2,257 nt of DNA. Origin: a plasmid. The notes under the pieces were generated by a model, which worked only from the letters and a program-made list of their open reading frames with translations, ran no database searches and was not told the DNA's origin. The stretch lies in assembly GCF_056746865.1 (NCBI RefSeq), contig NZ_JBWKMP010000010.1; one strand, given 5' to 3'. Positions 1 to 2,257 of the stretch are shown here, piece after piece. Position 1 is the first letter of the stretch; each line of letters starts with the position of its first letter. The position numbers and the translations under genes were made by a program.

Positions 1-837
1 AACGTCCTTAAGCACACCACCCGTCGCCACAAAACGGCGCTTATGTACCTGGCGTGTTAACTCTAGGAACCATTCAGGATCGACCAGCATGTCGGCGGGC
101 TTTGTAGAATATTTCAGTGTTTCAACCACCACCCCGCGCAGTTGATCCACCACAGAACAGGGCAACGATTCACCGTCTTTCGGTTTTCTGGACTTCACAA
201 CCCTGATGTCGACGTTCGGGTCATACTCCACCCGCAGACAGTCGCGCCACAACTCCACCCATCGGGCATGTTTCACATAACCATCACCGGACAACATCGA
301 GGGGGAAACCATCAGCAGGGTGTGGAAATGGGGATGAGCACTGCCGTCCTTGCCGCGGGTGACTTCCGTCGTGCGCACCCAACCCAGCACGCCGCGAAAC
401 TCTTTGCGATCTTTCAGGCGCTGGAAGGCCGCATTCATCACGGTCAGGGTGTCGCCAAGCTCCGTAATCGGACAGTTACGGACGGTCAGGGTCAGGAACA
501 GCCAGCGTGCATCAGGATATTCCGCAACGATCTTTGGCAGGGACTGATAGAAACGGGCTTGCCACATCAGGGAACGCCTCCACTGACAGATCGGACAGTG
601 CCGGACCCGACAGAACCGCGCATCACGTAACCGCAGGCGCGTTTCTCCGGTTTCCTCGTTGGTGGACCACCCAAAACGCAGAATGCCGCTACAACCCTCC
701 ACGCGTTCGCCGTAGCGTTCAAATCCGGCAGCCCGCAGATAAATTCCGCCCACATCATCGGAAATACTCCGGTGCTCATCCCACGTTTTGTCCGCAGGGG
801 AGTAATCCGCCAGATTCTGAAGTTCAGGGTTTTCCAT
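1..837 (-). CDS. Rolling-circle replication initiator, Rep_1 (pC194/pUB110-type HUH) family; 5' partial gene, start at 837, 3' end beyond window start
   Basis: Manual translation of the minus strand from ATG (complement of 835-837) is open for 279 codons to position 1: MENPELQNLADYSP...FLTLTVRN...HPHFHTLLMV...VETLKYSTKP.... It carries a Cys cluster CRVRHCPIC (612-586), motif I FLTLTVRN (498-475), HUH motif HPHFHTLL (336-313) and catalytic Tyr motif KYSTK (114-100) with Glu four residues upstream, the same layout as pC194 RepA. An in-frame TAG (850-852) sits just upstream of the ATG. Not in the ORF track because no stop lies inside the window. Confidence 0.9.
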   Translation of the reverse strand, partial: MENPELQNLADYSPADKTWDEHRSISDDVGGIYLRAAGFERYGERVEGCSGILRFGWSTNEETGETRLRLRDARFCRVRHCPICQWRRSLMWQARFYQSLPKIVAEYPDARWLFLTLTVRNCPITELGDTLTVMNAAFQRLKDRKEFRGVLGWVRTTEVTRGKDGSAHPHFHTLLMVSPSMLSGDGYVKHARWVELWRDCLRVEYDPNVDIRVVKSRKPKDGESLPCSVVDQLRGVVVETLKYSTKPADMLVDPEWFLELTRQVHKRRFVATGGVLKDV

Positions 838-974: not shown

Positions 975-1420
975 GACCGCTAAAACCAAAATACACTCAA
1001 AACCATTTCGGAGCAAATTGCCGTTCAGCCCAGTCCTGACAAGGTCTAGAGGCAAATTTGAATCCCAGAGTTATCCCTTAAGTATAAATACAAGGATCGC
1101 GCGCGAGATTTGCTCAAATTTCGAGCTATTTTTTTAGCCCCCCAAAGCCACACATCCCACCCACTTACACCCATCTCATCCACAGACTTTCACCCCGAAT
1201 TTGTGAACAACAAAAACAGCCTCACAGGTGGTTGGCCTCACTCCGTGACACCAACCACCACCACCAGTATCTTCCCCGTGCCATCGTCAATCACAAAATC
1301 GGAACCCACGCCGGAGGCGCGGGACCCCGCGATTTTCTGTTTGACGAGTTCGGGAACGGTGAGCGGGACGCGGAATTTTTTCGCGTGCCGTGAGGCGTTG
1401 GCGGGGTGTCGGGGCGAAGC

Positions 1421-1478
1421 CCTGACCAGGTGGGGAATGTCTGAGCGAGCGTGCGCGGTCCGACATTCCCACATCCTG
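1421..1478. repeat. Left arm of a perfect 58-bp inverted repeat (partner 1826-1883)
   Basis: cctgaccaggtggggaatgtctgagcgagcgtgcgcggtccgacattcccacatcctg is the exact reverse complement of 1826-1883. Imperfect similarity continues about 17 bp outward (to about 1403) and a few bp inward. Confidence 0.95.
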
Positions 1479-1586
1479 CCCCGATTTTTTCGCCAGAACG
1501 CTGGCAGAGCATCGGCAGTTCTGCGCCGTTAAGCCCTCCGCAGGAGCGCACAGTTTCCCGACGAAGGAGAGAAACGTCTAAGTACG

Positions 1587-1616
1587 CATCCGCACTTAAC
1601 TCGCGGATGATTTTTG
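1587..1616 (+). terminator. Intrinsic-terminator-like hairpin inside the inverted-repeat spacer (+ strand)
   Basis: Stem catccgc (1587-1593) pairs with gcggatg (1603-1609), 7 bp; loop of 9 nt; followed by ATTTTTGG (1610-1617). No T-run in the minus-strand orientation. Confidence 0.4.
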
Positions 1617-1825
1617 GCACCGCAGCCACCACAGCTACGCAAAAATTTCGGCGACCGGACAGCAAATCATTCTGCCGTTTTCGTGACGCAGCCGTTCCGC
1701 GCAATCGACAAACTGGCAGTACAGAAAACTCACGAAGTGCGCACTTATACAAACTTCACTTTGTTTCGTTTGTCGTGCGGTCTGCGACGCTCAAAAAAAC
1801 CGAGAAACGGCGGGAACTTTCGGGA

Positions 1826-1883
1826 CAGGATGTGGGAATGTCGGACCGCGCACGCTCGCTCAGACATTCCCCACCTGGTCAGG
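1826..1883. repeat. Right arm of a perfect 58-bp inverted repeat (partner 1421-1478)
   Basis: Exact reverse complement of 1421-1478; imperfect similarity continues outward to about 1900. The arms are separated by a 347-bp spacer (1479-1825). Confidence 0.95.
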
Positions 1884-2052
1884 ACTGCGCCCGACACCCT
1901 CGACACCGTGCCAAATGCACGTTAAAAAATCATTGCGCGCTTCTGGCAAACCTTCAGAGTCTGTTGCCGTGATAGCCAATATGTCAGAAGCGCGCTAAAA
2001 ACGATTCTGACGCGGTGAAGCATCAAATGTAAGGGGATTGCATTCCGGTAAT

Positions 2053-2104: not shown

Positions 2105-2257
2105 TTATTTCTGTTTTGGCTTATCCATTGTGCGATCGCGGCGATACTTTTTAGCCACCGCCCGCCATGAAAACGCCAGACGCGATCCGTCATCCGCACC
2201 CTCTGCCATGCCATCTGCCATAATCAAATCCTCGTTCGTTTCCCGCTCCAGTTGCAA
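2105..2257 (-). CDS. 3' end of an unidentified minus-strand ORF (open to the window edge), or a complete 38-aa basic small ORF starting at ATG 2219-2221
   Basis: Minus frame from 2257 is open for 50 codons (...LQLERETNEDLIMADGMAEGADDGSRLAFSWRAVAKKYRRDRTMDKPKQK*) and ends at TAA (complement of 2105-2107). The other two minus frames hit stops within 11 and 22 codons. An internal ATG (2219-2221) has GAGGA (2229-2233) 7 nt upstream. A strong terminator lies just downstream. Confidence 0.45.
   Translation of the reverse strand: MQLERETNEDLIMADGMAEGADDGSRLAFSWRAVAKKYRRDRTMDKPKQK

Follow-up and report, generated by a model that had tools for sequence, protein, structure and literature searches.

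A perfect 12-bp palindrome lies in the spacer of a small rolling-circle plasmid, and the question is what, if anything, recognises it. The window, by which we mean the whole stretch of DNA analysed, is a complete circular plasmid of 2257 bp; this exact length is shared by three public plasmid records, and the one compared in detail is collinear with the window, allowing for circular permutation. A sequence-only reading had drawn attention to the palindrome, AAGTGCGCACTT, which is indeed a perfect dyad, occurs once in the window and falls in the 335-bp spacer between two 73-nt inverted-repeat arms (1412-1484 and 1820-1892, 96% complementary). Taken alone, such a palindrome is within chance expectation: shuffled windows contain on average 0.54-0.61 perfect 12-bp palindromes, with a probability of about 0.42-0.46 of at least one, and the window holds a second, AAAATCGATTTT at 2087-2098. 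The latter sits just past the rep stop codon, beside a terminator-like hairpin (AAAACGCGCTCAGGCGCGTTTT, 2056-2077). Two things lift the spacer palindrome above chance: its minus-strand reading agrees with the MOBQ nick-box consensus at 12/13 positions, and it is conserved in homologous elements. We consider it probable that the palindrome is the nick box of a borrowed MOBQ4-type oriT on a pBuzz-type rolling-circle plasmid. Within that reading, the palindrome is very likely a homologue of the MOBQ4 oriT core, and we hold with good confidence that it serves as a relaxase nick box on the minus strand (Table 1).

The published MOBQ oriT consensus is NWACCNNTAAGTGCGCCCTYNN, with the core TAAGTGCGCCCTY (quoted in PMC3832669). 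The minus strand of the window reads TATAAGTGCGCACTTCG, within which TAAGTGCGCACTT (1747..1735) differs from that core at a single position (12/13; P about 0.002, from shuffles). When RSF1010-type, module-1-type and MOBQ4 oriTs were aligned with both window copies (modules 1 and 2 in Table 1), a common plan emerged, consisting of CCGCAGG.GCGCAC, a left arm, a loop CGA..AAG, a right arm, 1-4 nt and TAAGTGCGC; the conserved upstream element of the window, TCGCAGACCGCACG, is the counterpart of CCGCAGG(A/G)GCGCAC in natural MOBQ oriTs. On the nicked strand, a hairpin with a 6-bp stem lies one base (A) 5' of the nick box. Its arms are paired at 6/6 positions in 29/29 distinct haplotypes, and its two forms, ACAATC/GATTGT in MOBQ4 plasmids and ACAAAC/GTTTGT, amount to one compensatory double change. 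As single-stranded DNA, the window copy of module 2 folds no better than shuffles (z about +1), as against z=-2.95 for a genuine MOBQ4 oriT. The TTATAC stretch that had been described as AT-rich sequence beside the palindrome is present at 1745-1750, but it is not a separate element, being made up of the 1-nt linker and part of a hairpin arm (ATACAAAC).

On the minus strand, nicking is predicted at G|C, between 1740 and 1739, a placement taken over from the RSF1010 consensus. In the accessible literature on MOBQ4 plasmids, we found no mapped MOBQ4 nic site. Since the family consensus AAGTGCGCCCTY is already one substitution away from a palindrome, the dyad symmetry is probably largely incidental, and the site would be read as a single strand. 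More speculatively, a nick box with perfect dyad symmetry could serve as a cutting site on either strand.

A rival nick box on the plus strand, GTGCGCCCT, which lies 3' of the hairpin in MOBQ4 plasmids, was rejected on three grounds: it is allelic among functional MOBQ4 plasmids (CCCTGCGGGGC vs GTCTGCGACGC), it is the complement of the upstream element conserved across all MOBQ oriTs, and its orientation relative to mobA and mobC is wrong. Separately, a tiny hairpin with a 3-bp stem was observed at 1776-1790, for which there are two MOBQ4 alleles, CCC-TGC-GGG and GTC-TGC-GAC, set apart by compensatory changes at two pairs; both occur among functional MOBQ4 plasmids, and the window has the GTC/GAC form.

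Table 1. Features of the 2257-bp plasmid; a vertical bar marks a predicted nick position
Feature	Position	Strand	Basis
Rep_1 (pC194/pUB110-type, HUH) initiator, N-terminal 279 codons	1..837	-	PF01446, E=9e-80
Same rep gene, C-terminal 50 codons and stop	2105..2257	-	continuation across circle junction
Candidate double-strand origin TCTCGCGCGCGATCCTTGTATTTATACTTAAGGGATAAC	1070..1108	-	invariant across Rep_1 plasmids but for one C/T position
Candidate single-strand (lagging-strand) origin	1225..1334	.	conserved hairpin 1227-1259; IncFII likeness
Left I-complex (R64/K/B-O type, MOBP) oriT; hairpin 1433-1470; nick region ACATCCTG|CCCC 1471-1482	1402..1489	+	homology, fold z=-3.8
Module 1, RSF1010-like MOBQ oriT core; inverted repeat 1553-1559/1569-1575; box TAAGTACGCATCC 1579-1591	1525..1614	+	homology
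Module 2, copy of about the central half of the 178-bp MOBQ4 mobC-mobA intergenic oriT	1721..1811	-	homology; PMC6856555
Perfect 12-bp palindrome AAGTGCGCACTT	1735..1746	.	direct sequence check
MOBQ-type nick box TAAGTGCGCACTT	1735..1747	-	12/13 match to consensus TAAGTGCGCCCTY
Hairpin 5' of nick box, arms ACAAAC (1773..1768) / GTTTGT (1754..1749), 13-nt loop	1749..1773	-	pairing and alignment
Conserved upstream element TCGCAGACCGCACG	1774..1787	-	alignment of MOBQ oriTs
Right I-complex oriT, inverse orientation; hairpin 1834-1871; nick region ACATCCTG|TCCC 1833..1822	1815..1902	-	homology

The 335-bp spacer matched 1,191 plasmids, of which 1,162 are typed mobilizable, and the matches fell into two distinct blocks; a phage collection searched with it gave no match. 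Module 2 alone matches about 1,000 small MOBQ-typed mobilizable plasmids and was found in 571 of the 5,426 complete E. coli genomes, at 689 plasmid places vs 5 chromosomal ones. Donor plasmids of about 4.07 kb, which are pIGWZ12-like and ColE2-like MOBQ4 plasmids, carry it between divergent mobC and mobQ genes; their relaxases belong to PF03389 (MobA_MobL), and their MobC is without a Pfam match and described as uncharacterised (PMC6856555).

The experimentally delimited oriT of MOBQ4 plasmids is the 178-bp mobC-mobA intergenic region (PMC6856555), and module 2 shares about 80-87% identity with the middle of that region in both the pIGWZ12-like (MOBQ41, Rep_3) and the ColE2-like (MOBQ42) plasmids. 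The AAGTGCGCACTTATACAA block, which is invariant in MOBQ4 mobC-mobQ intergenic regions, the hairpin geometry and the upstream element are identical in the two. Unlike the MOBQ4 oriT, the window copy keeps only about 91 of the ~178 bp, lacking the mobC-proximal ~60-70 bp and the mobA-proximal end; one of its hairpin pairs is swapped from T-A to A-T; and it resides on a rolling-circle rather than a theta plasmid. Because neither mobA nor mobC adjoins it, the window site is an orphan oriT copy and not a complete MOB module. No mob genes were found in the window, where Rep_1 is the sole Pfam match. The remark of the sequence-only reading that the cognate protein is not encoded in the window thus held good, inasmuch as there is no relaxase gene there and MobA/MobL is encoded elsewhere, on the donor plasmids.

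The same arrangement recurs in the IncQ1 plasmid compared, where mobA/mobB (divergent) come first, followed by hairpin, box, about 85 bp and mobC; read on the minus strand, the MOBQ4 oriT starts from mobQ (divergent) and continues with hairpin, TAAGTGCGCACTT, about 90 bp and mobC, so that synteny with the RSF1010 type is exact in order, orientation and spacing. The oriT of RSF1010/R1162 (IncQ1, MOBQ1) shares with the window the hairpin, the short linker and the TAAGTGCGC box, and with the donor plasmids the position and orientation of the box relative to mobA and mobC as well as the relaxase family MobA_MobL. It differs in its stem (about 10 bp with a 3-nt loop, compared with 6 bp and 13 nt in the window) and in the end of the box, which is CCCTC in RSF1010/R1162 and CACTT in the window, the latter making the palindrome perfect; overall, the two are only distantly alignable. 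An RSF1010 oriT 62-mer used as the query matched 80 plasmid records at an identity of at least 99%, all typed mobilizable.

How well is the box itself conserved? Genome and metagenome collections were scanned with a hairpin-loop pattern that leaves out the palindrome and so avoids circularity. On contigs that also encode a MOBQ4 relaxase, the palindrome was intact in 104/104 instances and 44/44 distinct haplotypes, and the bases just upstream of it vary among these haplotypes. On contigs encoding a Rep_1 initiator, it was intact in 12/22 instances and 12/18 distinct haplotypes, with the box mutated in 6/18 rolling-circle haplotypes vs 0/44 MOBQ4 haplotypes (Fisher p=3e-4). The rolling-circle variants comprise AAGTGCGCACTC on a plasmid of pBuzz size, AAGTGTGCACTT in the closest relative of the window, AAGTGCGTACTT and an insertion. 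Conservation in homologous elements, which had been put forward as a check on the palindrome, therefore bears it out, completely among MOBQ4 haplotypes and in two-thirds of the rolling-circle ones. To judge by these counts, selection on the rolling-circle copies is relaxed, the window's own copy being intact. The conserved stretch is also asymmetric, reaching into ATACAA and the hairpin instead of extending evenly around the dyad. At a larger scale, 8/9 complete relatives keep module 2, with an identity of 88-99% that holds even where that of rep drops to about 75%, and 4/9 keep module 1.

Four metagenome contigs (L040, L043, L075 and L026) carry one to two extra tandem 9-bp units, CAC(G/A)AAGTG, abutting the palindrome; on the nick strand these units start at, or one base from, the predicted nick. 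The duplication could stem from slippage or from aberrant initiation or termination by a relaxase.

Module 2 lies between further sequences that resemble oriTs. Each of the two arms enclosing the spacer is a strong hairpin (z = -3.8 as single-stranded DNA) followed by ACATCCTG, and both can be aligned over a nick region, CACATCCTG.CCCG, that is invariant. Of the 1,882 plasmid records matched by one arm, 1,661 are conjugative, and on an IncK2/Z plasmid the match is located directly upstream of genes for a NikA-like accessory protein and a MOBP relaxase. The R64 nick was reportedly placed by Furuya and Komano, in 1991, 8 nt past the repeat, as in RP4 (ATCCTG|C). In a 5.2-kb Klebsiella plasmid, module 1 has a MobA/MobL relaxase gene directly downstream of it; Col156 plasmids carry the module too. 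In the window, its box is TAAGTACGC where natural copies have TAAGTGCGC (a G-to-A change), and its stem reads GTTTCCC, with a mismatch, where natural MOBQ copies have GTTTCTC (a T-to-C change), which suggests that module 1 of the window may be decaying. Modules 1 and 2 are homologous to each other and face one another, forming a nested, diverged inverted pair inside the I-complex pair.

How might the orphan site work? By homology, a MobA/MobL-family relaxase supplied by a co-resident MOBQ4 plasmid would recognise the small minus-strand hairpin (1773..1749) together with the adjoining single-stranded TAAGTGCG|CACTT, cleave the strand at G|C (1740|1739) and become attached to the 5' end, and the DNA would be exported via the type IV secretion system of a conjugative plasmid of the MPF_I class; what has been observed is the homology, position, orientation and conservation of the site. 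The best helpers of MOBQ4 plasmids are MPF_I plasmids such as R64 (PMC6856555), and the two I-complex oriTs would rely on the same helper class as MOBQ4 relaxosomes. MOBQ4 relaxases nevertheless strongly favour an oriT in cis, being 500-1000 times less effective in trans, and splitting the MOBQ4 oriT fragment at nt 70/71 abolishes transfer (PMC6856555). This trans penalty, the loss of half the oriT, the damage to a third of the rolling-circle boxes and the weak fold tell against use of the orphan copy, whereas the intact box, linker and hairpin of the window, the retention of the module across the family and the MPF_I helper in common speak for it. We regard its actual use in trans as a real possibility, if a somewhat doubtful one.

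The foremost alternative is that module 2 is an inactive relic, that is, a homologue of the MOBQ4 oriT core that is carried, unused, between two selected I-complex oriTs within a cassette. A box mutated in a third of rolling-circle haplotypes and never in MOBQ4 plasmids would be expected of such a relic, as would the survival of just about half of the 178-bp oriT, the preference of the relaxase for cis substrates and the weaker hairpin context of the window copy; the neighbouring module 1, too, has box and stem mutations. Less easily reconciled with it are the intact box, linker and hairpin of the window, where pairing has been compensated, and the presence of module 2 at 88-99% identity in eight of nine complete relatives, across which rep falls to about 75%. 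A low frequency of transfer in trans may, moreover, still be selectable. On this evidence, disuse is a serious contender, to which we give a minority share of belief.

A different function was suggested by the sequence-only reading, namely that the dyad is the operator of a dimeric helix-turn-helix protein; in its broader form, the palindrome would be a duplex site for a dimeric DNA-binding protein such as MOBQ4 MobC or a host regulator. The perfection of the dyad is in keeping with this, as is its place in MOBQ4 plasmids between divergent mobC and mobA, where autoregulation would be expected, and MOBQ4 MobC, uncharacterised and without a Pfam match, is a protein that could bind there. However, no promoter-like site was found in 1400-2257, and the window has neither a regulated gene near the palindrome nor a regulator gene. 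The MOBQ nick-box consensus, besides, explains the sequence base by base, with the non-palindromic AAGTGCGCCCTC of RSF1010 as a functional example, and the conservation extends to one side only, toward ATACAA and the hairpin. The helix-turn-helix operator was thus not borne out, and an operator or duplex site of any kind is unlikely here. What survives of the original proposal is a conserved protein-recognition site, and the suggested recombination site is loosely matched as well, a nick site being a site of site-specific strand transfer. In the donor plasmids, it may have a secondary role as a MobC site.

The palindrome might instead belong to the plasmid's own replication origin, as the nick site of Rep_1 (double-strand origin) or as the single-strand origin. 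The initiator gene runs across the circle junction (837..1, then 2257..2105) and encodes a protein of 329 aa with the HUH motif HPHFHTLL; the other ORFs of the window are without a Pfam match, and scanning the window against Rfam gave no RNA explanation, the sole match, to isrK at 2054-2161, being weak and below threshold. In favour of an origin, module 2 occurs in most family members, relaxases, like Rep_1 initiators, are HUH nucleases whose cuts fall beside hairpins, and the minus (rep) strand has TTTGTATAAG, which is faintly like the CTTGTAT of the candidate double-strand origin. Yet the complete Rep_1 plasmids L133 and L141, whose Rep proteins are 75% and 67% identical, have no palindrome, the module is also present in theta-replicating Rep_3 and ColE2 plasmids that lack Rep_1, and there are better candidates for both origins elsewhere. 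A different block, TCTCGCGCG(C/T)GATCCTTGTATTTATACTTAAGGGATAA (1108..1070 on the rep strand, ~39-45 bp), is invariant in all four Rep_1 plasmids compared (Rep 67-75% identical) and is likely, on this cross-plasmid conservation, to be the double-strand origin. The candidate was derived from that conservation and not from the Rep_1 nick motif CTTGATA, which has three one-mismatch matches vs 3.5 expected, none of them at the palindrome, and is uninformative alone. For the single-strand origin, 1225-1334 is the better candidate: it is similar to a segment that, in IncFII plasmids (Salmonella virulence-type), lies about 630 bp past repA, and since R1 and R100 have a primase-dependent single-strand initiation site at that spot downstream of repA, it is a plausible lagging-strand origin. 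We therefore think it very improbable that the palindrome is part of either origin.

Three further observations concern the replication region. The 1070-1108 block holds a 10-bp palindrome, TCGCGCGCGA (1097-1106), and the CTTGTAT that recalls the CTTGATA nick motif of the pC194 family. Another conserved hairpin region is found at 1284-1347. Just upstream of the rep start, direct repeats conserved in relatives, CGTGTTATCATTCCAATATC (873-892) and CGAGTTATCAATCCAATTTC (903-922), may be a Rep binding or autoregulation site.

That the palindrome is a product of chance or a restriction-enzyme site (it includes TGCGCA and GCGC) without any role is refuted by its conservation and hardly deserves credence: about 45% of shuffled windows do have a perfect 12-bp palindrome, and there is the second one at 2087, but the site is intact in every MOBQ4 context (104/104; 44/44 haplotypes) while adjoining bases vary, and the 12/13 consensus match has a P of about 0.002.

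Returning to the nick-box reading, the plasmid has known relatives. As far as the accessible accounts of pBuzz (Moran & Hall 2019, Plasmid 101:10-19) and pSZECL_a go, it resembles them in being a cryptic Rep_1 rolling-circle plasmid of ~2 kb without a relaxase and in having two inversely oriented copies of a conjugative-plasmid oriT; the same accounts report mobilisation of pBuzz by a B/O or other I-complex plasmid. The papers citing pBuzz describe two I-complex or L/M-type oriTs only and do not mention MOBQ cores in the spacer, unlike the window, which has them. Relative to the pBuzz type (roughly 2 kb), the window adds module 1 and reaches 2257 bp; its arms reach 98.6% identity with the arms of a 1983-bp relative that itself has module 2. 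Small relaxase-less plasmids with several oriTs are exemplified by pEC156, which has F-type and R64-type oriTs (PMC4743918). Mobilisation by three elements, with a borrowed relaxase and a conjugative T4SS, is exemplified by pST1030-3 and its orphan mob-associated oriT, as cited in PMC9282650. Going by what these sources present, both differ from the window in having ColE1-type replicons, other oriT types and experimentally demonstrated function. Orphan oriTs, multi-oriT plasmids, three-element mobilisation and pBuzz itself are thus already known.

The main value of the present case lies in the prediction of a MOBQ4 nic site and in an example of a four-oriT cluster. The prediction is a concrete one for the widespread MOBQ4 plasmids, found in roughly one in ten complete E. 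coli genomes. Boxes beside a relaxase gene (44/44 intact) set against orphan boxes (12/18 intact) amount to a small natural experiment, showing how selection on an oriT weakens when a cis-preferring relaxase acts in trans. As for the cluster, the ~500 bp of 1402-1902, with its two I-complex MOBP, one RSF1010-like MOBQ and one MOBQ4 oriT copy, might, tentatively, act as a mirror-symmetric battery of four inward-facing oriTs addressing three relaxase systems, which would make the plasmid a second-order hitchhiker. We think this rather unlikely. If such a battery existed, the plasmid would exploit the relaxase of a conjugative plasmid as well as the relaxases of mobilizable plasmids parasitic on the same MPF_I apparatus, and either DNA strand would be exportable. 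A small plasmid that has no relaxase gene is often classed as non-mobilizable, or credited with one oriT through which it can be mobilized; the case suggests that a 2-kb plasmid can stack oriT copies for several relaxase families within a few hundred bases, which would widen its range of co-resident mobilizers and bears on the sequence-based prediction of transfer networks.

Individual relatives add some detail. In a plasmid of 2617 bp (L139, NZ_CP039589), spacer positions 1433-1767 are 99.7-100% identical to the spacer of the window, while Rep is only 47% and the arms 81-85% identical; the oriT cassette thus appears to be mobile between quite different rolling-circle replicons. The closest relative (L001, NZ_CP070910) has I-complex hairpins that differ from each other, GGTAATCGTATAAC.../...GTTATACGATTAC (777-849) vs GGGGAATGTCTGAG.../...CCGACATTCCC (1184-1256), and its two arms may answer to two different NikA/NikB specificities. 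In L133 (1989 bp) and L141 (Col(BS512), 2089 bp), an inverted MOBP-like pair, (G)TCTATCCTGCATT and CAATGCAGGATAGAC, replaces the I-complex arms; L141 is typed as non-mobilizable by MOB-suite despite that pair.
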